Source: Acidobacteriota bacterium (GTDB lineage Bacteria; Acidobacteriota; Terriglobia; 2-12-FULL-54-10). From it: a stretch of DNA of 64,000 bases. The DNA lies in NCBI GenBank assembly GCA_016191085.1, contig JACPPJ010000031.1:261-64260 (forward strand). Reading direction: 5' to 3'. Position 1 is the stretch's first letter. Each line of letters opens with the position of its first letter. Positions 6,223 to 39,228 of this stretch are shown one piece after another. Below the pieces are notes generated by a model. The model was not told the DNA's origin, made no database searches, and was given only the letters and a program-made list of their open reading frames with translations. The position numbers were made by a program, and so were the translations under genes.

Positions 6223-7620
6223 ATGCTCCGACTGTTACGCTTCTCTTCCGCGAGTGCACTCGTGTTGGTACTCAGCTCACTCCTTGGCGTGGGCACGTGG
6301 GTATCGCTGACCGGCAACACCCTACCCGCTGTCATGTACCGCGCGCCTTTGCCGCCTACAGGGTCTCCGCAACTGGTTTCTGTTGGGCTGCTGCCGCAGG
6401 CCCAAACCGAGGGCGAGATGTGCGAGTGGGTTCCGGCCAGCAGCCAGGAGCGGCTCGTGGCTATACCGCAGGAGAGGATGGCACGGACATCCACCGCAGC
6501 GGCCGAAGAAACCGGCCGAACCGCCGTATTGATAGAGCGCGCGCCACAACGAGTCATCAAGGATCCGTATCCGACCTACAGCGCGGTAGCGCTGGACCCC
6601 ATTTCGCGTGAAGTCGTTTTGCAAGACGAGAATCTGTTCCAGATCGTGACGTTCGATCAGAACGCCAACACTCCTCCAACGGCAAACTTCACCGAGCCCA
6701 AGCGCATCATCGGCGGCCACAACACGAAAATCGAATTCAACTGCGCGCTCTACGTTGATCCAAAGAACGGAGACATTTACTCCGTCAACAATGACACGCT
6801 GGACACGCTGGTCATCTTTGACCGCTCTGTCAGAGGAGACCAACCGCCCACACGCGAGCTCCGCACGCCCCATCGCACCTACGGAATTGCCGTCGATGAA
6901 GGGCAGAATGAGATGTACCTTACCGTGCAGGACCCGCCCATGGTGGTGATCTACGACAAGAACGCGATAGGCAACGACAAGCCGAAGAGAGTGATTCGCG
7001 GCAACAAAACCCGCCTGCAAGATGCGCACGGAATCGCGCTTAACAAGAAGGGCGGCTTGATATACGTGGCCAATTATGGAAACTACGCCCAGTACAGAGA
7101 CGGCGGCGGCAACAACCTGCCTGGGCGCAGCGATGACGACATGATCCGGGGCAGCGGCAAGTTTGCACCGCCGTCGATTGCCGTTTTCAAAATCGATGCC
7201 ATGGGCGACACGGCTCCCATCGGCCTGATCCAAGGGCCAAAGACAATGCTCAATTGGCCCGCTCACCTGTTCTATGATGAACAGCACCAGGAGCTTTTCG
7301 TGGCCAATGACGGAGACCATTCGGTGTTGGTCTTCCGGTCCATGGATACCGGGGACGTCGCTCCTACTCGTTTCATCAAAGGACCAAAGAGTCAGATAAA
7401 GAATCCGACGGGCGTGGCGGTGGATTCGAAAACGGACGAGCTGTTCGTCTCTAATATGGGCAACCATTCAGCCACCGTTTACAAGCGCACCGCGTCGGGC
7501 GATGTGCCGCCGATCCGAACCATCCGCAGCGCGCCCTCAGGTGCACCCGCTCTCCAGATCGGCAATCCCGGTGCGGTAGCATACGACACCAAACGCGACC
7601 AAATACTGGTTCCCAACTGA
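6223..7620 (+). CDS. Secreted beta-propeller repeat protein (NHL/YncE/lactonase-like blades), N-terminal part; ends at an in-frame TGA (locus A)
   Basis: It has a signal/anchor N-terminus and repeated blades of the form PxRxIxGxxTxLxxPxGxAxDxxxxELxVxNxxxxSxxVF. It is paralogous to 30424..31875 and 32049..33416. Confidence 0.8.
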   Translation: MLRLLRFSSASALVLVLSSLLGVGTWVSLTGNTLPAVMYRAPLPPTGSPQLVSVGLLPQAQTEGEMCEWVPASSQERLVAIPQERMARTSTAAAEETGRTAVLIERAPQRVIKDPYPTYSAVALDPISREVVLQDENLFQIVTFDQNANTPPTANFTEPKRIIGGHNTKIEFNCALYVDPKNGDIYSVNNDTLDTLVIFDRSVRGDQPPTRELRTPHRTYGIAVDEGQNEMYLTVQDPPMVVIYDKNAIGNDKPKRVIRGNKTRLQDAHGIALNKKGGLIYVANYGNYAQYRDGGGNNLPGRSDDDMIRGSGKFAPPSIAVFKIDAMGDTAPIGLIQGPKTMLNWPAHLFYDEQHQELFVANDGDHSVLVFRSMDTGDVAPTRFIKGPKSQIKNPTGVAVDSKTDELFVSNMGNHSATVYKRTASGDVPPIRTIRSAPSGAPALQIGNPGAVAYDTKRDQILVPN

Positions 7621-7641
7621 GTAGCTCACCCGCAGATTGCG

Positions 7642-7665
7642 GCCTTCGCCAGGATGGCGAAAGGC
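7642..7665 (+). promoter_or_regulatory. Candidate recoding (SECIS-like) hairpin 3' of the TGA at 7618-7620
   Basis: Sequence gcc-ttcgcca-GGA-tggcgaa-a-ggc: 10 bp with a 1-nt bulge and apical GGA, with the loop 31 nt after the TGA. Equivalent hairpins sit at the same offset in the two paralogs. Confidence 0.4.
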
Positions 7666-8475
7666 GGAGATGCTCCCCAGCGCGTGATATTCGGCCAGGC
7701 TACCAACCTCAGCCGAACCATGCATGACATCCGCTACAGCGCCAAGCGCGATGAGATCTATGTGACCAATCCGTTCGGACAAGCGGTCTTAGCGTTCCGC
7801 GGCACCGCAAGCGCCAACGAGGCGCCGATCCGCGTCATCCAAGGACCCAAAACGCAGCTCGGCAGCGAGGATACCCTGGAGATCGATGATATACACGATG
7901 AGATCCTGATTCCCACCGAGGATCGGATCCTGGTTTATCCAATTGATGCGAACGGCGACATCGCGCCGCTGCGCGTCATCAAGCCGGAGAACAATTACTG
8001 GAGAACTGGCGGCGGCATCGCTGTGGATCCTATCCACAACGTATTAGTGACCGACGGAACACTGCCCGGAGAGGAAACCATTGCCAGCGGACGCGCTGCG
8101 CGCGCCAATCGCCGCGATAGTATTCTGATCTTCGACCGCACCGCAAACGGCGAGGTCAAGCCGCTGCGTGTCATCCGAGGGCCTCGGACCGGCATCAAAG
8201 CGATACGCCAGATGCAGATCTATCCGAAGAACGGGTATATCGTGATCGCGCAGATAACCGATGGCGCTATCGCGGAGCCGGAGGGGACGTTTGTCGGTGT
8301 CTGGAGCATTAACGACAGCGGAGATGTCCCGCCGCGCTGGAAGATTGAAGGCAAGCCTGGCAATGGTATGAAGAAACCGCGTGGCGTCGCATTGAACCCA
8401 AAGCACAAGGAATTAATCGTCTCCGATATGCGACTCAACTCCGTCCTGACGTACTATTTCCCGGAGATGTTCTAA
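7654..8475 (+). CDS. Beta-propeller repeat protein, C-terminal part (locus A); conserved coding sequence actually begins at 7621, right after the TGA
   Basis: The ORF-track ATG is at 7654. The 33 nt upstream (VAHPQIAAFAR) are in frame and conserved in the paralogs. The blades continue through to the C-terminal YYFPEMF. Confidence 0.8.
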   Translation: MAKGGDAPQRVIFGQATNLSRTMHDIRYSAKRDEIYVTNPFGQAVLAFRGTASANEAPIRVIQGPKTQLGSEDTLEIDDIHDEILIPTEDRILVYPIDANGDIAPLRVIKPENNYWRTGGGIAVDPIHNVLVTDGTLPGEETIASGRAARANRRDSILIFDRTANGEVKPLRVIRGPRTGIKAIRQMQIYPKNGYIVIAQITDGAIAEPEGTFVGVWSINDSGDVPPRWKIEGKPGNGMKKPRGVALNPKHKELIVSDMRLNSVLTYYFPEMF

Positions 8476-28744: not shown

Positions 28745-29587
28745 TTACGAGTGACGCTCTCGGTGGCGGACCGCTCCCTTGCGGTCGCGGCTCGGATTCA
28801 AGCGGAGCAGGTCAACGCCGTCCTGAAACTCCCGGCGCATCTCTTTGGTCCAATGATCGGTTTCGCGCAGCGGCTTGGGAATGCGATAGCCGTCGCAGCA
28901 GGCGAGTGTTAGGCGCACCCCGGTGCGCAGCGAAACGCGGTGCCCGCAGGAAACAAAGATTGGCCGCACGCCGTCGCGGGTGCGGAGCGCCGTGCCGATG
29001 ACTTCACCGCGATGTCGCAGCGGCGACGTGGAGCCTCGCGCGAAACCGGGCATTTCGTAATCGCCGATCAGGACAGATTTGGCGCAGCCGATCGCGGGAT
29101 TATCCAGCACCAAACCCAAATGGCAGGCCAGTCCGGCGCGGCGAGGATGCGCGTACCCGTGGGCGTCGGCAAGAATCAGGTCAGGACGCCGCGAGAGCTT
29201 CGCGAATGCGTGGAGCAGCAAAGGAATCTCCCGGAACGACAGCAGGCCCGGAATGTACGGGAAGCTCAGATCAGCGCAATACGAGGCGCGCTCCAACTCC
29301 TCCAGCTTCGGGAACGAGTAGACGATGACGGCGGCGAACCCGGTGTTTTCACTCAGGGCGACGTCGGCTGCCGCAACAGTGCGGACGCGCCCCAGGCGAT
29401 CGCTTCGGTTGACCATCGGCGCGATGCGCTCCTGCAACGACCGCGCCTCAGATGGAGTCACGTTGAGCTTGGCGAGTTCGTTGCGATCAACCAGCAGTGC
29501 GGATGTGATGGATTGAGTCAGATTGAAAGTCGATTTGCTGTCGGAGAGCTCCAGCCCAGGCGGGAGAGCCCTGGGCTGGAGCCACAT
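28745..29587 (-). CDS. nfi: Endonuclease V
   Basis: AADVAL…FPYIPGLLSFREIPLLL…DLILADAHGYAHPRRAGLACHLGLVLD…IGCAKS. The start lies 2 nt downstream of the locus-B propeller stop. Confidence 0.85.
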   Translation of the reverse strand: MWLQPRALPPGLELSDSKSTFNLTQSITSALLVDRNELAKLNVTPSEARSLQERIAPMVNRSDRLGRVRTVAAADVALSENTGFAAVIVYSFPKLEELERASYCADLSFPYIPGLLSFREIPLLLHAFAKLSRRPDLILADAHGYAHPRRAGLACHLGLVLDNPAIGCAKSVLIGDYEMPGFARGSTSPLRHRGEVIGTALRTRDGVRPIFVSCGHRVSLRTGVRLTLACCDGYRIPKPLRETDHWTKEMRREFQDGVDLLRLNPSRDRKGAVRHRERHS

Positions 29588-29589
29588 GG

Positions 29590-30423
29590 TCAGAATATCT
29601 CCGGGAAGTGATACGTCATTACGGCATTGACGTATTTATCCGAGACAATTACTTCCTTAGTCTTTGGCACCACCGTGATGCCGCGCACCTGCCGCAGCAT
29701 CTGGTTCGGGCCTCCTATCATCCACCGCGGTGGAACGTCGCCGTTGTCGGTTTCACTCCACACGCCAACCCAGTTGTTGGGAGACGATTTCTCCCGGCTG
29801 GGCATTCCGGCCAGAATCATCTTTGTCGGCGGGTAGACGGTGATCAGGGCTGTGAGCAGGATCTTGCTTTTGGGACCGAAGATCTGCGCCTTGGGCTTGA
29901 CGTTGCCGTTGTCCGTCCGGTTGAAGATGAGAATGTGGCCGTTTCTGCCGCTCTCTACGGCGCGCTCGTCTCCCTTCCGGGGTCGCTGGCCCGAAGCAAT
30001 GAGCAGATTGTTGACCGGATCGACAGTCAGAGCAGTGGCGCCCAACATTGTGTCAGGCCCCTTGATGGTGCGGATCGGTTTCACATTGCCCTCAGCGTCA
30101 CTGGGAAAAACCAGGATGGTGTCCTCCAGCGGAATGAAGACCTCTTTGTGAATCGGATCGAGGGCGAGCCTCGCCGGAGTGGTCATCTGCGTATCGGGAC
30201 CCATGATGATGCGGATCGGCTTCTCGTCTCCGTTCGCACCGCCGCGGTAGGTCATGATCGCCTGGGCATAGAACTGCGGGATGACGATCTCATCCGTGAT
30301 GGGGTTGTAGGCCATGTCGTGGATCGTGCGGGTGATCGCCGAATTCTGACCTGCGATTGAACGGGTGGGCTTGGCATTTCCGTTCGCCAACCTGGCGAAT
30401 GCCGCGATCTGCGGATGAGCCAC
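29590..30423 (-). CDS. Beta-propeller repeat protein, C-terminal part (locus B); begins at the GTG directly abutting the upstream TGA
   Basis: It starts (V)AHPQIAAFARLANGNAKPTRSI…, is collinear with 7621..8475 and 33417..34223, and ends …YHFPEIF. Confidence 0.8.
   Translation of the reverse strand: MAHPQIAAFARLANGNAKPTRSIAGQNSAITRTIHDMAYNPITDEIVIPQFYAQAIMTYRGGANGDEKPIRIIMGPDTQMTTPARLALDPIHKEVFIPLEDTILVFPSDAEGNVKPIRTIKGPDTMLGATALTVDPVNNLLIASGQRPRKGDERAVESGRNGHILIFNRTDNGNVKPKAQIFGPKSKILLTALITVYPPTKMILAGMPSREKSSPNNWVGVWSETDNGDVPPRWMIGGPNQMLRQVRGITVVPKTKEVIVSDKYVNAVMTYHFPEIF
30373..30403 (-). promoter_or_regulatory. Candidate recoding (SECIS-like) hairpin 3' of the TGA at 30424-30426 (minus strand)
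   Basis: The minus-sense RNA reads ggcat-ttcgcca-GGU-tggcgaa-cggaa-atgcc: a 7-bp upper stem, a 5-bp lower stem and an apical GGU. Confidence 0.4.
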
Positions 30424-31875
30424 TCAGTTGGCGACGAGCAACTCGTCGCGCTTGCTGTCCCAGGTCAGCGTGTGCGGATTGCCCATCATGGGAGCCGGAG
30501 CCTCGATGGGCCCGCTGCGGATGACGCGCAGCGGCGGTGCATCGCCGGAAGCGCCCAGCTTGTACACGGTTGCCGTGTGGTTGCCGAAGTTGGCCACCCA
30601 GAGCTCCTGATTCTTCAGGTCAGCGAAAACGCTGGTCGGATTCTTGATCAACGTCTTGGGTCCCTTCAGGACACGGATCGGAGCCACATCGCCGTTCGCA
30701 TCAGCCTTGAACACCAGCACCGAATCCACCGGATCGTTCGCCACATACAACTCGCCGCGTTCATGATCAATGCTGAGCGCGGTGGGCCAGTTGAGCTGTG
30801 TGCGCGGTCCCTGGATGACCCGGATCGGCGGGGTATCCCAGCTAGCGTCGCGTGGATACACCGTAATGGAAGGCGGCATGAACTTGCCGGAGCCTGGCAC
30901 TGCATCGTTGCGGCCAACCGGCCAGTTGTCTCTGCCGATGCCGCGATTCAGCGTACCGCTGTACTTGCCGGATGCGGGCCGTTTGTGGACGTTTACCGAA
31001 CCCCAGTTGCTGACGTAAATCTGGTCCGTCTTGGGATTATATGCAATGCCATGGGGATCAGCCATGAGAGTACGCGGACCTTGCAGCGTACGAATGGGCG
31101 AGTCCTTACCCGTCGCCGTCTTTTTGAACGTCACCACGGCGGCATCGTCCTGGACGGTCAGCATCAACTCCTGCGTCCTCTCGTCCACCGCGACTCCAAA
31201 CGTGGCCATCGGCGTATTGAGATAGCGCGCCGGCTTAGCGTTGCCGTTTGCGCCGTGGGGAAACACAGCCATCTTGCCGAGCGTATCGTTATTCACGGCG
31301 TAGATGTCGCCGTTGGCGGGGTCGATATAGAGAGAGCATTGGAACTCGATCTCGGTATCCTCGCCGTGGATCATGCGCTTGGGCTCGCTCAGCTTGGCAT
31401 TGGGCGGAGTGTTCTCGAGGCGGTCATAAGCGACGATGCGAAACTTGTTCTCATCCGTCATGAGCACTTCATTGTGGATGGGGTCAACCGCAACGGCGCT
31501 GAAGGCACCCCAGGGGTCATTGATGACTCGGATCGGTTTCCGTCGTGACGCGGCGAGCTTTTCTGCTTCGGTCACATCCGCGGCGGGCGGCGCAAATTGC
31601 TGCTGGAATGAAGCGAACAATGACGAGTTGGCGGCGCTGGCCGGTTCCCACTCGCACCTTTCACCATCGGCTTGCGGCAGCGGCTCAACCGAAACTAATT
31701 GTGGCTGTCCTGTGGCCTTTTGTGCTGGTCTCAATTGACCGCCCGCGCCCCAGAGTACAACCGTAGCAATGAGCGCGAGGAGAGCTAATATGCCGAGTCC
31801 GCCCGCCCTGTTTCGAAACAAACGTACACGCGCCATTCGTATTCCTCCTTTAATCCCAGCCGCTCCGCTATTCAA
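30424..31875 (-). CDS. Secreted beta-propeller repeat protein, N-terminal part; ends at an in-frame TGA (locus B)
   Basis: 483 aa with a signal/anchor, the conserved QPQLVSVEPLPQADGERCEWEPAS segment and seven blade-like repeats. It ends …DSKRDELLVAN-TGA. Confidence 0.8.
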   Translation of the reverse strand: MNSGAAGIKGGIRMARVRLFRNRAGGLGILALLALIATVVLWGAGGQLRPAQKATGQPQLVSVEPLPQADGERCEWEPASAANSSLFASFQQQFAPPAADVTEAEKLAASRRKPIRVINDPWGAFSAVAVDPIHNEVLMTDENKFRIVAYDRLENTPPNAKLSEPKRMIHGEDTEIEFQCSLYIDPANGDIYAVNNDTLGKMAVFPHGANGNAKPARYLNTPMATFGVAVDERTQELMLTVQDDAAVVTFKKTATGKDSPIRTLQGPRTLMADPHGIAYNPKTDQIYVSNWGSVNVHKRPASGKYSGTLNRGIGRDNWPVGRNDAVPGSGKFMPPSITVYPRDASWDTPPIRVIQGPRTQLNWPTALSIDHERGELYVANDPVDSVLVFKADANGDVAPIRVLKGPKTLIKNPTSVFADLKNQELWVANFGNHTATVYKLGASGDAPPLRVIRSGPIEAPAPMMGNPHTLTWDSKRDELLVAN

Positions 31876-32048: not shown

Positions 32049-33416
32049 ATGCATTGCAATTCGTCTGGAAAGGCTCTTCTGACCATCGTCGCGGTTCTAA
32101 TCGCAACGGGCGGCTTGTGTCTGGTATCCGGAACTCAATTTCAATTCGGCAAAGACCGCCCCAACGGCCAGCCGCGATTGATTGCGATTGATCCGCTGCC
32201 GCAAGCCGACGGTGAGGTTTGTGAGTGGCAACCGGCGAGCTTCAGCGCGCCGCAGGGGCAGGCCGGCACATCCTCTCCCTCATCTGCAGCAGACGAGGCG
32301 AAGAAGTCGGAGGTGGAGAAGCGCAAACCAATCAGGACCATTCGCGACCCTTACGCGGCATACAGTTCCGTGGCAGTGGATCCCGTCCACAATGAGGTGG
32401 TGCTGACGGATGAGAACCTTTTCAACATTCTAGTTTACGACCGCCTGGCGAATACTCCTCCTAACGCCAAAATGACCGAGCCCAAACGCATGATCGGAGG
32501 GCTGAATACCAAAATTGAGTTTCAGTGCGGGCTCTACATCGACCCGACGAACGGCGATATTTTCGCAGTGAACAACGACACGGTGGACACGTTGGTCATC
32601 TTCAACCGGCAGGCCAAGGGCAATGTGCCGCCTACGCGCGAGCTGTACACTCCACATGGAACGTTCGGTATCGCCGTTGACGAGCAGGCTCAGGAAATGT
32701 ACTTGACGGTGCAGCACGACAGCGCGGTGGTGGTATACAAGAAGTACGCTACGAAAAATGACTCGCCTCTGCGCCTGTTGCAGGGCGACAATACCATGCT
32801 GGCAGACCCGCACGGCATCGCCGTTGATCCGAGGACCAATGTGATCTTCGTGGCCAATCACGGCGCGACTCACTCGGTGGATGGGAAACTGAGCGAACAC
32901 ACAAGGCGGCCGAATTTCCCCTTGGAGCGAGCGTTTGCCGTGCCCGGATCGGGCCGCAGCCTGCCTCCTTCCATCACCGTGTACGAAAAGAACGCGTCGG
33001 GCGACACCGCTCCGATACGCGTGATCTCCGGTCCGAACACACGAATGAATTGGCCCTCCGGCCTGGCCGTGGATTCTGATCGCGGCGAGCTTTACGTTGC
33101 AAACGATATGGATGATTCGATCCTGGTCTTCGACATCACTGCCGAAGGCGACGCGGCGCCGAAGCGCGTACTGAAGGGGCCGGCAACCATGCTCAAGAAT
33201 CCTACTGGCGTGTTCCTCGATACGAAGAACGACGAGCTGTGGTCCGCGAATTTCGGGAATCACACCGCGACAGTGTTCAAGCGGACGGCATCCGGCAACA
33301 CACCGCCGTTGCGCGTGATCCGCAGCGGACCTACCAACGAGCCATCGCTCGGCATCGGCAACCCGCACCCGATTGCGTACGACAGCAAGCGCGAGGAGAT
33401 TCTGGTTCCCAACTGA
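32049..33416 (+). CDS. Secreted beta-propeller repeat protein, N-terminal part; ends at an in-frame TGA (locus C)
   Basis: 455 aa with a signal/anchor, the QPRLIAIDPLPQADGEVCEWQPAS segment and blade repeats. It ends …DSKREEILVPN-TGA. It is transcribed divergently from locus B. Confidence 0.8.
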   Translation: MHCNSSGKALLTIVAVLIATGGLCLVSGTQFQFGKDRPNGQPRLIAIDPLPQADGEVCEWQPASFSAPQGQAGTSSPSSAADEAKKSEVEKRKPIRTIRDPYAAYSSVAVDPVHNEVVLTDENLFNILVYDRLANTPPNAKMTEPKRMIGGLNTKIEFQCGLYIDPTNGDIFAVNNDTVDTLVIFNRQAKGNVPPTRELYTPHGTFGIAVDEQAQEMYLTVQHDSAVVVYKKYATKNDSPLRLLQGDNTMLADPHGIAVDPRTNVIFVANHGATHSVDGKLSEHTRRPNFPLERAFAVPGSGRSLPPSITVYEKNASGDTAPIRVISGPNTRMNWPSGLAVDSDRGELYVANDMDDSILVFDITAEGDAAPKRVLKGPATMLKNPTGVFLDTKNDELWSANFGNHTATVFKRTASGNTPPLRVIRSGPTNEPSLGIGNPHPIAYDSKREEILVPN

Positions 33417-34223
33417 GTGGCGCACCCGCAGATCGCGGTCTTCGCCAGGATGGCGGATGGAAACGCGGCGCCCACTCGAAAGATTGAAGGACAGAAAACT
33501 CTCCTCGGACGCACCATGCACGCGATCGCCTACGATGAGGTTCACGATGAGTTCATGGTCCCGCAACAGTTCGCCCAGGCAATTCTGACTTTCCGCGGCG
33601 CGGCAAGGGGCGAAGAGGCTCCGGTGCGCGTCATTCAAGGCTCTAAAACCCAGCTTGTCTCCCTGGACCGGCTGGCCTACGACCCCGTGCATGGAGAAAT
33701 CTTCGTGCCCGAAGGTGAAAAGGTACTGGTGTTTCCGCGCGCCGCCAACGGCAACGTTGCTCCCGTGCGCGTGCTGGGCGGCAAGGGCTCCTCATTACGC
33801 GCCAGCGCTGCTGCCGTGGACACAGTGCGTAATCTGCTGGTCGTGATGGGAGGCGAGCGAAACGATCCGCGGTTTGAGATTTACAACCGCACCGATGAAG
33901 GCAACGCTAAGCCCCTGCGTGTGATTGGCGGCCCCAAGAGCGGGTTCCGCCAACTGGGCGGCCCATTTGCCGTGTATCCGCCGAAGGGCTGGATCATCGC
34001 TTCGGATCGCGGACACGGAGAGCTGGTTTCCGACATAGCGTACGTGGGCGTCTGGAGTGTGGAAGACAACGGCGATGTGCCGCCCCGCTGGAGGTTCGGC
34101 GGACCGAACGGAGTGTTGAAGATGCCCCGCGGTATAACCCTTGATCCCAAGAACAAGAACGTCCTTGTCAGCGATAAGCGTCTGAATGCGGTGATGACTT
34201 TCGCCTTCCCAGAGCTGTTTTAG
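33417..34223 (+). CDS. Beta-propeller repeat protein, C-terminal part (locus C)
   Basis: It starts at the GTG immediately after the TGA, reading (V)AHPQIAVFARMADGNAAPTRKI…, and ends …FAFPELF. Confidence 0.8.
   Translation: MAHPQIAVFARMADGNAAPTRKIEGQKTLLGRTMHAIAYDEVHDEFMVPQQFAQAILTFRGAARGEEAPVRVIQGSKTQLVSLDRLAYDPVHGEIFVPEGEKVLVFPRAANGNVAPVRVLGGKGSSLRASAAAVDTVRNLLVVMGGERNDPRFEIYNRTDEGNAKPLRVIGGPKSGFRQLGGPFAVYPPKGWIIASDRGHGELVSDIAYVGVWSVEDNGDVPPRWRFGGPNGVLKMPRGITLDPKNKNVLVSDKRLNAVMTFAFPELF
33435..33466 (+). promoter_or_regulatory. Candidate recoding (SECIS-like) hairpin 3' of the TGA at 33414-33416
   Basis: Sequence gcg-gtc-ttcgcca-GGA-tggcgga-tggaaa-cgc: a 7-bp upper stem including one G-U pair, an apical GGA and a short lower stem. 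Confidence 0.35.
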
Positions 34224-35095: not shown

Positions 35096-36559
35096 TTGGA
35101 GGCTCGTTTCGTGTTAACCTTTCTGCCATCCCGCTCCCACCTGGATTCCTTCTATCATTTGGATGCGGATCCTGTCCCGACAGCCTGTCGCGGTCTGGCT
35201 TGCTTTGTCGCGCGACACCTGAATGCGCCGGCATGGCGGGAAGCGACGGCCCACAGCGAGCGCGTATACTGCCTGGGCAAGTGTTATGCGGCCCCGGCAT
35301 GCACGGACGAGGATCAGCGCCCCCGCGTCGAGGTGCACGCATCCACACCGGTGCTTCTAGGCCGCGTGCTTGGCGGAGGCGCTCCCGGTATTGACCGCTA
35401 TATAAAACGCCAGGGTTATCGAGCGCTCGAGCTGGCGTTGCGGCAGTCTCCTGAGCACTTAATTCAGACTATTTCCGAATCGGGTCTGCGAGGGCGCGGC
35501 GGCGCCGGGGTCCCCACCGGTCGCAAGTGGGATGCCGTTTTTCGCGAGCGATCAAACGAGAAGTTCGTGATCGCCAATGCCGATGAAGGCGATCCAGGCG
35601 CGTTCATGGAGCGCGTTCTGCTGGAAGAGGACCCGCACTCGTTGATCGAAGCGATGGTGATTGCCGGATTCGCGGTAAACGCCGCCCGGGGAATCATTTA
35701 TCTCCGCAAAGAATATCCGCGAGCGGCAGTCATGCTGCGCGAAGCCATCCAGGATGCACGGAGAAAAGGGATTCTCGGCTCGAACATCCTGGGCAGGCGG
35801 TTTTGCTTCGACGTGGAACTCGCAATCGGGCGCGGCAGCTATGTCTGCGGAGAAGAATCGGCTCTGCTGAACGCGCTGGAAGGAAAGCGCCCCGAACCCA
35901 GGCAGCGCCCGCCTTATGCCAGCGAAAGCGGCCTCTATGGCAAGCCGACACTCATCAACAACGTGGAGACATTCGCGAACGTCCCCTGGATTATTCTCAA
36001 CGGGGCCGACGCGTACAGCAGGCTGGGGTGTTCGACCAGCAAAGGGACCAAGTTGATCTCGCTGAACTCGCTGTTCCGGCGGCCCGGGCTGTACGAAGTG
36101 GAATTCGGCGTGACCGTCCGGCACGTAGTAGAACAGATCGGCGGCGGCCTCGCGGGCGAGTTGAAAGGTGTGATTATCGGAGGGCCGCTGGCGGGAATTG
36201 TTCCGCCGCACCTGCTCGACACTCCATTCGCGTTCGAGGAGTTGCGCTTGATCGGCGCCAGCGTGGGCCACGGCGGCATCGTAGCTTTCGACGAACACAC
36301 CAGCATTCGCGAGCTGATCCATCATATGTTCGAGTTTGGCGCTTATGAATCATGCGGCAAATGCACGCCGTGCCGCGTAGGCACGCGCCGCATAGAAAAG
36401 CTGTTCGCTCGCGCCTGGTTCAACGAAGCAGAAGACGCCGAGTGGCGCGAGATCGTTCGCGCGATGTCCCTAACCAGTTTCTGCGGAATGGGGACGGGGC
36501 TCGCCGAATTCGCGCAGAGCGCGATTCGTTATTATGCCGAGGAGCTTGCATTATGCTGA
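35096..36559 (+). CDS. NuoF-like NAD(H)-binding flavoprotein subunit (formate dehydrogenase beta / NuoE-F fusion type)
   Basis: GLRGRGGAGVPTGRKW, ANADEGDPGAFMER and a C-terminal 4Fe-4S motif ESCGKCTPCR. The N-terminus carries C-x4-C … C-x3-C, resembling a NuoE-type 2Fe-2S motif. Confidence 0.85.
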   Translation: MEARFVLTFLPSRSHLDSFYHLDADPVPTACRGLACFVARHLNAPAWREATAHSERVYCLGKCYAAPACTDEDQRPRVEVHASTPVLLGRVLGGGAPGIDRYIKRQGYRALELALRQSPEHLIQTISESGLRGRGGAGVPTGRKWDAVFRERSNEKFVIANADEGDPGAFMERVLLEEDPHSLIEAMVIAGFAVNAARGIIYLRKEYPRAAVMLREAIQDARRKGILGSNILGRRFCFDVELAIGRGSYVCGEESALLNALEGKRPEPRQRPPYASESGLYGKPTLINNVETFANVPWIILNGADAYSRLGCSTSKGTKLISLNSLFRRPGLYEVEFGVTVRHVVEQIGGGLAGELKGVIIGGPLAGIVPPHLLDTPFAFEELRLIGASVGHGGIVAFDEHTSIRELIHHMFEFGAYESCGKCTPCRVGTRRIEKLFARAWFNEAEDAEWREIVRAMSLTSFCGMGTGLAEFAQSAIRYYAEELALC

Positions 36560-39228
36560 GCGTGACAATCAACGGCATACAATGCAGGTGTCCCGAGGGC
36601 GTCAGCATTCTGGACGCTCTGAACTTGCTGAATATTAAGATGCCGTCGCTCTGCCATGATGACCGGCTGGAACCGTACGGCGGCTGCCGGTTATGTATAG
36701 TGCAGGTGAAGGGACACGATCGCCCCGTGCCTGCGTGCAGCACGCCGCTTGCCGAGGAGATGGAGATCGAAACGCATAGCGCGGAGATCAAAGAGCTCCG
36801 CCGGACGCTGCTGAAGCTGTTGGCGCATTCGTACCCCGCCGAGGCTGTGAAGGCGTTCCCCGATAAACCGTTCCATCGGTATCTGAAGAGCTATGGTGTG
36901 GAGGACGCTTGTGTTCACGGCTATTACCCCACGCTTGCGGACGAATCGCATCCATACATTCGTGTGGATATGTCGCGGTGCATGTATTGCCAGCGCTGCG
37001 TACGCATATGCCGGGAAGTACAAGGACAGTTTGTGTGGCAGGTGTGGGATCGAGCAGACGCCACCAGGATATTGCCCGACTCGGGCACCAATCTCGCCGA
37101 AAGCTCCTGCGTGGCCTGTGGCGCTTGCGCCGATACTTGTCCAACGGGTGCCCTGGAAGACAAGACACTTCTCTTGAGCGGCTCGGCATTGGCGGGCACG
37201 AGCACGACGTGCCCCTATTGCGGCGTGGGATGCGAGATGGAAGTGCGCACGCGCGGCAGCCGCATCGTAGCAATCAAGCCAGTGGTCAGCGCCCCGGTGA
37301 ATCGCGGGCACTTGTGCGTGAAGGGAAGGTACGCCTTTGAATTTGTGCACTCGCCAGACCGGATCACCGAACCGATGATCCGGCGCAACGGCGAATGGAA
37401 GCCTGTATCGTGGGAGTACGCCATTCATACTGTGGCCGAGGCGCTCCGCGAAAGCATCCAGCGCGAAGGTCCTCAAAGTACCGCGATTCTGGCTTCGGCG
37501 CGGGCAACGAATGAGGAGAACTACCTGACTCAGAAATTTGCGCGCGTGGTGCTGGGCACCAACAACGTGGATTGCTGTGCGCGGGTCTGTCACGCTCCAA
37601 CGGCTACCGCGATGAAGGCGATGCTTGGGACAGGCGCGGCTACCAACTCGTTTAATGATATCGAGCGGGCGCGGACGATTCTTGTATGCGGCGCAAACCC
37701 GACCAGCAACCATCCCGTGATCGGCGCGCGCATCAAGCAGGCGGTGCTGAAGGGCACCAGCCTGATCGTCATTGATCCGCGGCGGATCGAACTGGCCGAC
37801 TACGCCGACCATCACCTGCAAGTTCGGCCGGGCACCAACGTTCCGCTCCTGAACGCCATCGCTCACACCATTGTTGAAGAGAGCCTCTTCGACAGAGAAT
37901 TCATGCGGGAGCGTGTCTCGGATTGGGAGAGCTTCGCGCGGTTTATCCAGAACTTCGCGCCGGAAAAAGTGGCGACCGTTTGCGGTGTGAACGCTCAGTG
38001 CATCCGTGAGGCGGCACGCCTATATGCCACGGAAAAGCCCAGCATGATCATCCACGGGCTGGGCGTCACGGAACACACTCAGGGTAGCGAAGGCGTGATG
38101 CTGCTCGTCAATCTCGCTCTGCTTACCGGGAACGTCGGTAAGCGCGGCGGGGGTGTGATGCCGCTGCGCGGCCAGAACAACGTCCAGGGCGCTGCTCACA
38201 TGGGCTGCGATCCCGGGAGCCTTACGGGCGCAGTCGCTTTTGACGACGGCAAAGCCTTGTTTGAAGACGCATGGAGCACGTCGCTTCCTTCAACACCCGG
38301 TCTGAATTTGCTGCAAATGATGGATGCGGCTGCTGAAGGCAAGCTGAAGACGCTGTGGGCCATTGGATTTGACGTATTTCTCACGAACCCGCAGGCGCAC
38401 GCGACGTCCAGGGCGCTCTGGGAAATGGACTGCGTAGTCGTTCAGGATATGTTCCTGAACGAAACGGCGCGCGAATTCGGTTCGGTGTTCCTGCCGGCGG
38501 TATCATCGTTCGAAAAGGACGGTACATTCATGAACGCCGAACGCCGCGTCCAGAGGGTGCGGCAGGTGATTGAACCCCTTGGGCAAGCGAAAGCAGATTG
38601 GGAAATCTTATGCCTGGTGGCGCGCGCTATGGGTAAAGCCAACTTGTTTCCGTATACCAGCGCCGAGCAGATCTGGAATGAGATTCGGACAGTATGGAAG
38701 GCGGGCGCGGGTATCTCCTATGGCCGGCTGGAACAGGGCGGTTTGCAGTGGCCCTGCCCCGATGAAACGCATCCCGGCACAGAGATCCTGCACACCCAAT
38801 GCAGCTCTCCAAAAACGATAGCGCTCCGCGAAGTGCAATATCGTCCCACTCCTGAGAGAGTGGCGAAGGACTTTCCATTTCTGCTGATAACGGGTAGAGC
38901 GGCGTATCAGTTCAATGCCGGGACCATGTCGTCGCGCACACCCAACGTGGAACTCTGGCCAACGGATGTTCTGGAGATGGCGGCAGCCGATGCGCAACGG
39001 CTAGGCGTACGCAGCGGCGAACGGGTTCGCATCCGAAGCCGCTTCGGAGAGGCCGAACTGCCGCTGCAGATCAGCCCTGCCCTTCGCCCTGGCGAGTTGT
39101 TCACCACCTTTCACTCTCCGCAGGTCTTCTTGAACCACGTTACCAGCCCCTACCGCGACACGTTCTCCGACACTCCCGAGTACAAAGTCACTGCCGTCAC
39201 GGTCGAAAAAGTCAGCGATTCCGCATAA
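36553..39228 (+). CDS. fdhA: Formate dehydrogenase alpha subunit (molybdopterin, NuoG-like N-terminus), cysteine type
   Basis: The ATG at 36553 overlaps the upstream stop (ATGCTGA). The N-terminal 2Fe-2S/4Fe-4S cysteine clusters and a molybdopterin oxidoreductase core are present. The active-site segment is CCARVCHAPTA, with TGT at 37588-37590. Confidence 0.9.
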   Translation: MLSVTINGIQCRCPEGVSILDALNLLNIKMPSLCHDDRLEPYGGCRLCIVQVKGHDRPVPACSTPLAEEMEIETHSAEIKELRRTLLKLLAHSYPAEAVKAFPDKPFHRYLKSYGVEDACVHGYYPTLADESHPYIRVDMSRCMYCQRCVRICREVQGQFVWQVWDRADATRILPDSGTNLAESSCVACGACADTCPTGALEDKTLLLSGSALAGTSTTCPYCGVGCEMEVRTRGSRIVAIKPVVSAPVNRGHLCVKGRYAFEFVHSPDRITEPMIRRNGEWKPVSWEYAIHTVAEALRESIQREGPQSTAILASARATNEENYLTQKFARVVLGTNNVDCCARVCHAPTATAMKAMLGTGAATNSFNDIERARTILVCGANPTSNHPVIGARIKQAVLKGTSLIVIDPRRIELADYADHHLQVRPGTNVPLLNAIAHTIVEESLFDREFMRERVSDWESFARFIQNFAPEKVATVCGVNAQCIREAARLYATEKPSMIIHGLGVTEHTQGSEGVMLLVNLALLTGNVGKRGGGVMPLRGQNNVQGAAHMGCDPGSLTGAVAFDDGKALFEDAWSTSLPSTPGLNLLQMMDAAAEGKLKTLWAIGFDVFLTNPQAHATSRALWEMDCVVVQDMFLNETAREFGSVFLPAVSSFEKDGTFMNAERRVQRVRQVIEPLGQAKADWEILCLVARAMGKANLFPYTSAEQIWNEIRTVWKAGAGISYGRLEQGGLQWPCPDETHPGTEILHTQCSSPKTIALREVQYRPTPERVAKDFPFLLITGRAAYQFNAGTMSSRTPNVELWPTDVLEMAAADAQRLGVRSGERVRIRSRFGEAELPLQISPALRPGELFTTFHSPQVFLNHVTSPYRDTFSDTPEYKVTAVTVEKVSDSA

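Follow-up and report, generated by a model that had tools for sequence, protein, structure and literature searches.

The DNA considered here is a window of 64,000 nucleotides from an Acidobacteriota bacterium (GenBank assembly GCA_016191085.1, contig JACPPJ010000031.1, positions 261 to 64,260 of the forward strand), in which three related genes, termed loci A, B, and C, encode beta-propeller proteins interrupted by an in-frame TGA. The focus is on locus B, where an earlier note, made from the letters of the window, had described a hairpin just 3′ of the TGA and proposed that it acts as a selenocysteine (Sec) insertion sequence (SECIS). On the minus strand, the open reading frames (ORFs) 30424–31875 and 29590–30423 merge through the TGA into a single frame of 761 codons, for which there are two candidate start codons, a TTG at 31875 and an ATG at 31836. 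The product of 761 amino acids comprises an N-terminal transmembrane helix, a disordered linker, and a double beta-propeller that includes U484, the residue specified by the TGA. An AlphaFold2 (AF2) model of the joined protein (pLDDT 87, pTM 0.84) places the transmembrane helix at residues 25–42, a nearly invariant Cys74 in the disordered linker, and the double propeller at residues 115–760, with residue 484 lying inside a propeller blade, where one of its strands ends. Pfam searches of the B protein detected propeller repeats of generic types only (NHL, Lactonase, and SGL), and no specific model of NCBIfam (release 20) matched it, the weak generic matches falling far below cut-off. A structural search of the PDB with the B model returned generic tandem propellers (WD40, YWTD; TM ~0.3) and no functional clue.

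The three loci belong to a large family in which the TGA occupies a fixed position. Within the window, the paralogs are 48–56% identical on both sides of the TGA, each has one TGA at the same alignment column, and all share the motif N-U-VAHPQIA(A/V)FAR. Of 14 genomes belonging to the order, 12 were found by a six-frame search to contain the family, at 2–51 copies each (the present genome has approximately 22, a closed genome of 3.8 Mb has 32, and a draft has 51), and among the matches listed for these 12 genomes all but two of more than 140 copies have exactly one TGA, at this same column. A further 80 public loci, mostly in Terriglobia, Bryobacterales, and Solibacteraceae metagenome-assembled genomes but including a few that carry the labels Binatia or Verrucomicrobiia, contained 83 family matches of their own, 81 with TGA and 2 with TGC. 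The counterpart of the UGA in other proteins is cysteine (Cys), which is found at this column in 119 of 120 full-length database homologs, the remaining one having tryptophan (W). This homolog, P0114 from JGI metagenome 3300071358 (local sequence VPNWVAHPQIAAF), may owe its W to a real TGG or to a TGA that was translated with a different code. Family copies also occur in tandem arrays, with six copies within approximately 20 kb on contig C34 (~4.1–24.4 kb) and groups of two or three on several further contigs (arrays also on C10, C61, and C76).

With the U of the UGA numbered as nt 1, the minus-strand RNA of locus B from 30426 to 30373 (54 nt) reads UGA GUGGCUCAUCCGCAGAUCGC GGCA UUCGCCA GGU UGGCGAA CGGAAA UGCC. 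The earlier note had placed the UGA correctly at 30426–30424 and nt 54 at 30373, and the 7-bp upper stem that it described, UUCGCCA/UGGCGAA (U28–A34 with U38–A44; window 30383–30399), is present together with its GGU loop (G35-G36-U37, window 30390–30392). Below these seven pairs, the main helix in B continues through an A27·C45 mismatch to a C26–G46 pair. The description of the parts beneath the upper stem needs correction. A spacer of 19 nt (N19) had been counted between the UGA and GGCA, and the distance is 20 nt (nt 4–23); the actual sequence is GGCAUUCGCCA, compared with the ‘ggcau-uucgcca’ as written, so that 7 + 4 or 6 + 5 bp can form. The 7 + 5 bp that had been claimed are impossible because U28 was counted twice; it can pair with A44 in the upper stem or with A50 in the lower stem, but not with both. 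The 5′ partner of the lower stem’s UGCC arm is GGCA, nt 24–27 (window 30400–30403).

The B hairpin had further been ranked as the best formed of the three in the window. The local optima for nt 24–54 are −15.2 kcal/mol in A, −12.2 in B, and −8.4 in C, and the ranking fails where stability is concerned, A being the more stable. What remains of it is that B has the sole GGU loop of the window copies and the top score against the family covariance model (82 bits, with 77 for C and 71.2 for A, all three being training sequences), and B is the window copy closest to the family consensus. The recommendation of B as the copy most suitable for experimental testing also loses force: the 27–45 mismatch is present in all three window copies, and an unbroken 9-bp helix is found in several copies elsewhere in the genome, those on contigs C26 and C61 among them. 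The coordinates of the gene, the element, and its counterparts at loci A and C are collected in Table 1.

Table 1. Positions in the window of the propeller genes, their in-frame UGA codons, and the associated RNA helices.
Feature	Position	Strand	Basis
Host gene of locus B	29590..31875	−	NHL and Lactonase Pfam matches; AF2 model; tandem-propeller folds only
In-frame UGA, codon 484 of gene B, predicted to be read as Sec	30424..30426	−	Continuous translation; column shared with A and C; Cys in homologs
Mini-hairpin, nt 13–25, CCGC-AGAUC-GCGG, 4 bp with 5-nt loop	30402..30414	−	96.3% of cells paired (94 sequences)
Main helix of the predicted SECIS, nt 26–46	30381..30401	−	93.6% of cells paired; 27–45 covariation; G35 invariant
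3′ arm of the lower stem of the earlier note, UGCC, nt 51–54	30373..30376	−	Formable in B, not conserved
Locus A, gene 6223–8475: UGA and two-helix element (loop GGA)	7618..7663	+	Same TGA column
Locus C, gene 32049–34223: UGA and two-helix element (loop GGA)	33414..33459	+	Same TGA column

Structures were compared on 94 distinct sequences, and a census of loops was taken on 110 copies. RNAalifold independently returned a mini-hairpin (14–16 with 22–24) followed by a main stem extended to nt 26–46, and in the corresponding two-helix fold (13–16/22–25 and 26–34/38–46) 94.4% of cells are paired, with no slid register exceeding 55%. Two-sided changes occupy 36 cells in this fold, compared with a shuffle mean of 11.1, and its covariation score of 0.128, against 0.082 for the shuffles, was reached by none of 500 shuffles. 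The main helix covaries at pair 27–45, which links the wobble positions of two codons and appears as AU (36), GC (15), UA (11), and CG (6); among the copies of the source genome, C30–G42 is also replaced by U–A and A34–U38 by G–C. The mini-hairpin has a compensatory change of its own, from C16–G22 to A–U, in the divergent HPRIS subfamily. At the tip of the main helix, all 110 copies have G35, and the next base is G in 103 of them and U in the other 7. The loop U, which had been regarded as canonical, is one of several variants (GGU 49, GGC 39, GGA 14), GGU being the commonest, and G35 is the only invariant loop position. The functional fold is most likely a 4-bp mini-hairpin (nt 13–25) abutting a 9-bp main helix (nt 26–46) that is capped by G-G-N.

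A competing view keeps the SECIS and holds that the fold functioning in B is that of the earlier note, in which a 6-nt internal loop lies between the upper stem and a distal lower stem (24–27/51–54) and the mini-hairpin plays no part. Nt 24–54 of B does adopt this fold in isolation, at −12.0 to −12.2 kcal/mol, nt 21–56 reach −13.7 kcal/mol, and pair 27–51 displays some two-sided changes. Yet the two-helix fold of nt 13–46 is stronger at −14.0 kcal/mol, the RNAalifold structure does not contain the lower stem, and the stem’s ensemble probability in B is 0.01–0.05 in the wider context. Across the 94 sequences, only 59.3% of its cells are paired, and G24–C54 can form in 28. The lower stem and the mini-hairpin are mutually exclusive because both need G24 and G25, and in the mini-hairpin these bases are 88–99% paired and fall under strong synonymous constraint (CCG, GCG). 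The lower stem does not qualify as a feature of the family, and its being the working structure in B is improbable.

It is the comparison across the family, and not the fold of one sequence, that is decisive in raising the hairpin above chance. Folding of the 81-nt B segment by itself gives z = −1.68, which is unexceptional. A stem of 7 bp or more capped by a G[G/U]N triloop, however, follows only 0.24% of all TGA trinucleotides in the genome at a distance of 16–37 nt. Selection at the RNA level on nt 4–46 is evident from the synonymous sites. In a codon alignment of 103 Sec-form genes, the share of the most frequent synonymous codon averages 0.57 (sd 0.135) over 388 informative codon columns, and the ten columns under the strongest constraint include eight just after the UGA, at +1, +4, +5, +7, +9, +10, +11, and +13. 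Their top-codon shares are 0.91 for V+1 (GTG), 1.00 for P+4 (CCG), 0.92 for Q+5 (CAG), 0.99 for A+7 (GCG), 1.00 for F+9 (TTC), 0.98 for A+10 (GCC), 0.98 for R+11 (AGG), and 1.00 for A+13 (GCG). The codons that build the mini-hairpin are fixed, with CCG in 110/110 copies at P+4 and GCG in 103/104 Ala codons at A+7. In the main stem, Arg+11 is encoded by AGG in 102/105 Arg codons, and this codon accounts for 9% of the Arg codons across these genes.

Cys forms served as the control. A metagenome scan for Cys forms with the local peptide NCVAHPQI yielded 34 family members among the matches, and in these AGG makes up 11/33 of the Arg codons (Fisher 2e-14), GCC at +10 is retained in 22/30 and GCG at +13 in 22/34, and the stems decay. 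On the protein tree, the Cys forms that keep the hairpin all lie within 0.13–0.17 substitutions per site of a Sec form, and those at 1.18 or more substitutions per site have no hairpin. Because Cys forms with the same peptide lose both the codon choices and the hairpin, the RNA element tracks the UGA rather than the peptide, and the direction of this effect is unambiguous. One Cys clade keeps a ‘fossil’ SECIS (L136, L140, L147, L171, and L175), and sister Cys forms (L141, L164, and L169) have begun to lose theirs through changes of AGG to AGA or CGA, GCC to GCT, and GCG to GCA; together they compose a natural decay series that follows a change from Sec to Cys.

These observations bear directly on the proposal that the hairpin is a by-product of the conserved peptide F-A-R-L/M-A and of codon bias, with the UGA being decoded without any hairpin or through a signal elsewhere. 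It is true that the stem is made wholly of conserved codons, that its seven core pairs scarcely vary, and that the z-score of the single sequence is only −1.68. The Cys forms, however, conserve the peptide equally well, and their codons nevertheless drift. AGG, moreover, is seldom used for Arg in these genes, synonymous constraint is concentrated at +1 to +13 only, covariation links the wobble positions 27 and 45, and the same design of stem and triloop follows the UGA of unrelated selenoprotein genes, as described below. This explanation is very improbable.

The element can be compared with the consensus model for bacterial SECIS elements (bSECIS; Zhang and Gladyshev, bSECISearch), which a 2026 review gives as a stem of 4–16 bp, a loop of 3–9 nt with a G as its first or second base, usually followed by G or U, 16–37 nt between the UGA and the loop, and a minimum free energy (MFE) of at most −7.5 kcal/mol (PMC13188914, Fig. 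2A). The B copy agrees with this consensus on every point. In B, the helix of nt 26–46 lies within the ORF directly 3′ of the in-frame UGA, the stem has 7 bp (9 bp in the family), the loop is the 3-nt GGU with G-G at positions 1–2, the spacing is 31 nt (nt 4–34) as in all copies, and the MFE is −8.7 kcal/mol for nt 26–46, −12.2 for nt 24–54, and −14.0 for nt 13–46. Two features set the propeller element apart from the consensus, namely a spacing near the upper limit and a second conserved hairpin, of 4 bp, that has no counterpart there. The mini-hairpin alone was also considered as the SelB site and was rejected, as it departs from the consensus on three counts with a spacing of 13 nt, a loop that starts AGA, and an energy of −4.9 kcal/mol.

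The SECIS of Escherichia coli fdhF, whose loop carrying a G and then G/U is recognized by SelB, is likewise a hairpin immediately 3′ of the UGA and inside the ORF. It has a bulged U, a GGUC-type loop, and approximately 11 nt between the UGA and the minimal hairpin, whereas the family has no bulge, a G-G-N triloop in which the U is not conserved, and a helix base 22–24 nt after the UGA. E. coli SelB may therefore be unable to recognize the propeller element. Other selenoprotein genes of the lineage share the same design of stem and triloop. The SelD proteins of three relatives (L182–L184) are selenoproteins in their own right (AAG-U-ASKLSPK), and the SECIS of their genes, GUCCAAA-GGU-UUUGGAC at a spacing of 20 nt, joins a stem of 7 bp to a G[G/U]N triloop, here GGU, as the propeller element does. 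In the source genome, a rhodanese gene (FYUQSGRR; contig C70, plus strand, TGA offset 14785) carries GGCGCGC-GGA-GCGCGCC at a spacing of 17 nt, and a UxxC redoxin gene (DWUPYC; contig C66, minus strand, offset 875) carries GCAACTC-GUU-GAGUUGC at 21 nt; both are probable further selenoprotein genes of known types.

The lineage possesses the machinery for Sec. The source genome encodes a tRNA-Sec (71.5 bits; SeC(tca) according to ARAGORN) and SelA (540 bits), and SelB (350–433 bits) and SelD (343–358 bits) are present in all six of the six near-complete genomes of the same family, the SelD of relatives carrying an in-frame TGA itself. Searches of the source assembly, which is 88% complete, found no SelB, the matches being EF-Tu (C72), CysN/CysC (C9), IF2, and EF-G, and the SelB winged-helix Pfam model reached only 13 bits on the genome; no selB lies among the neighbours of selA. 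The search of the same assembly for SelD found none, with ThiL as the best match. The absence of both would most simply be an assembly gap. A genome-wide reassignment of TGA can be ruled out, since 569 of 1455 long ORFs end in TGA, more than in either of the other stop codons; nor was an extra suppressor tRNA found, the single UCA-anticodon tRNA detected in the genome being a typical tRNA-Sec.

If the TGA were a true stop, locus B would be either a split gene with products of 483 and 277 amino acids, the second restarting at the GTG after the TGA, or a pseudogene. A GTG directly follows the TGA in 101/110 copies, gene callers report two ORFs, and the source assembly has yielded neither SelB nor SelD. 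Set against this, 9/110 copies have GTA, GTC, or GTT, which are unable to start translation, and no Shine-Dalgarno sequence is visible upstream. A stop or a decaying gene also accords poorly with the recurrence of a single TGA at one column in nearly all of the listed copies and with conservation of the protein to either side; each Cys homolog is one unbroken polypeptide, and in the AF2 model the joined protein forms a single, confident double propeller. A true stop is therefore highly unlikely. Recoding of the UGA to a residue other than Sec, whether to Cys by a SelB-dependent tRNA variant or to Trp or Gly by near-cognate read-through, is just as hard to credit: P0114 is recorded with W at the column and SelD, the supplier of the selenium donor, was not found in the source assembly, but the sole UCA-anticodon tRNA found is a typical tRNA-Sec, SelA, which has the Ser-to-Sec conversion on tRNA-Sec as its sole role, is present, and SelD occurs in every near-complete relative.

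The hairpin of locus B is thus very probably the SelB-binding stem-loop of a bacterial SECIS located in the coding sequence, with UGA-484 being read as Sec. In this respect, the central claim of the earlier note, that a SECIS-type hairpin serves the in-frame UGA, is well supported by the Sec/Cys pair, the single TGA at one column in the paralogs, the synonymous constraint, the Sec genes, and the agreement with the bSECIS consensus. As envisaged, a ribosome arriving at UGA-484 of the propeller mRNA would meet SelB, with GTP and Sec-tRNA(Sec), held on the G-G-N triloop of the GC-rich helix of nt 26–46. Sec would then be delivered at the UGA, the ribosome would avoid termination, and the product would be a single membrane-anchored double beta-propeller selenoprotein of ~750 amino acids. 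Binding by SelB and the actual insertion of Sec are predicted steps of this scheme, as is a role of the mini-hairpin in taking up the extra ~11 nt of spacing.

Several points weigh against this assignment. The sequences compared are paralogs and relatives, and the Fisher and shuffle statistics overstate their independence. The seven core pairs are almost invariant and so are backed by conservation, not by covariation. In B, a downstream hairpin of nt 42–68 (GAACGG...CCGUUC; window 30359–30385, minus strand) is predicted to form at the expense of the three outermost pairs in the SECIS stem, and because of this competition the ensemble probability of the full upper stem in the wider context is lowered to ~0.45–0.49, compared with ~0.8 in A and C. 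The spacing of 31 nt is 10–14 nt longer than that of the three other selenoprotein genes (17–21 nt), and, as noted above, selB and selD are missing from the 88%-complete source assembly. Finally, Rfam gave no match at the gathering threshold for the whole window and none at E values up to 10 for positions 30300–30500; the lack of an Rfam match is expected for bSECIS elements and is not positive evidence.

The long spacing invites speculation about the mini-hairpin. The mRNA channel of the ribosome ends at about nt 13, as footprint data indicate, and this is where the mini-hairpin begins. The 13 nt of the mini-hairpin also roughly match the extra spacing of the propeller element relative to the lineage’s other SECIS elements. 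It is conceivable, if rather doubtful, that the propeller genes carry a composite two-helix SECIS in which the mini-hairpin, positioned at the expected exit of the mRNA channel, displaces the SelB triloop to +31. The mini-hairpin would then occupy the site taken by the helix base in the lineage’s other SECIS elements, in a core that is near-identical in 20–50 paralogs per genome. Were such a composite element to exist, the supply of selenium or of SelB could gate the whole set of paralogs together.

The mechanism proposed for locus B is known and ordinary; it is the host selenoprotein family that is new. Catalogued prokaryotic selenoprotein families likewise have a Sec/Cys pair at one conserved position and one Sec per protein. 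The propeller family differs from them in its host, an NHL/lactonase-like double beta-propeller, and in its tens of copies per genome, and Sec would be placed in a beta-propeller and not in a thioredoxin-like fold. The review cited above makes no mention of propeller, NHL, lactonase, YncE, their Pfam accessions, or Acidobacteri* (PMC13188914), BSepDB (PMC13326102) and deep-Sep (PMC12013277) contain no propeller or NHL entry, and literature searches retrieved no description of a propeller selenoprotein family. Current catalogues and NCBI models are accordingly without this family, and gene callers split its genes into two ORFs; the near-identical SECIS core offers a simple and specific search key for their re-annotation. 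The largest bacterial selenoproteomes quoted number 57 and 63 genes (PMC13188914), a size that the propeller family alone, at 32–51 copies per genome, would approach. If the family is real, the selenium demand and the selenoproteome size of abundant soil Acidobacteriota would be far above what has been assumed.

A few further features of the genome and of the window deserve mention. On the minus strand of contig C54, a 1345-codon frame for a PAS/sigma-54-type regulator contains one TGA (offset 10377; DPYT-U-IEALHPEDR). A hairpin of 6 bp whose loop is GGA follows at a spacing of 20 nt, and this TGA could specify Sec, could be a nonsense mutation at a Trp position, or could be due to chance. Within the window, an ORF for endonuclease V (nfi; 28745–29587, minus strand) starts 2 nt past the stop codon of locus B, with which it is probably co-transcribed. 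Next to locus C (window 35096–39228, plus strand) lie two ORFs, one resembling NuoF and the other a molybdopterin formate dehydrogenase.

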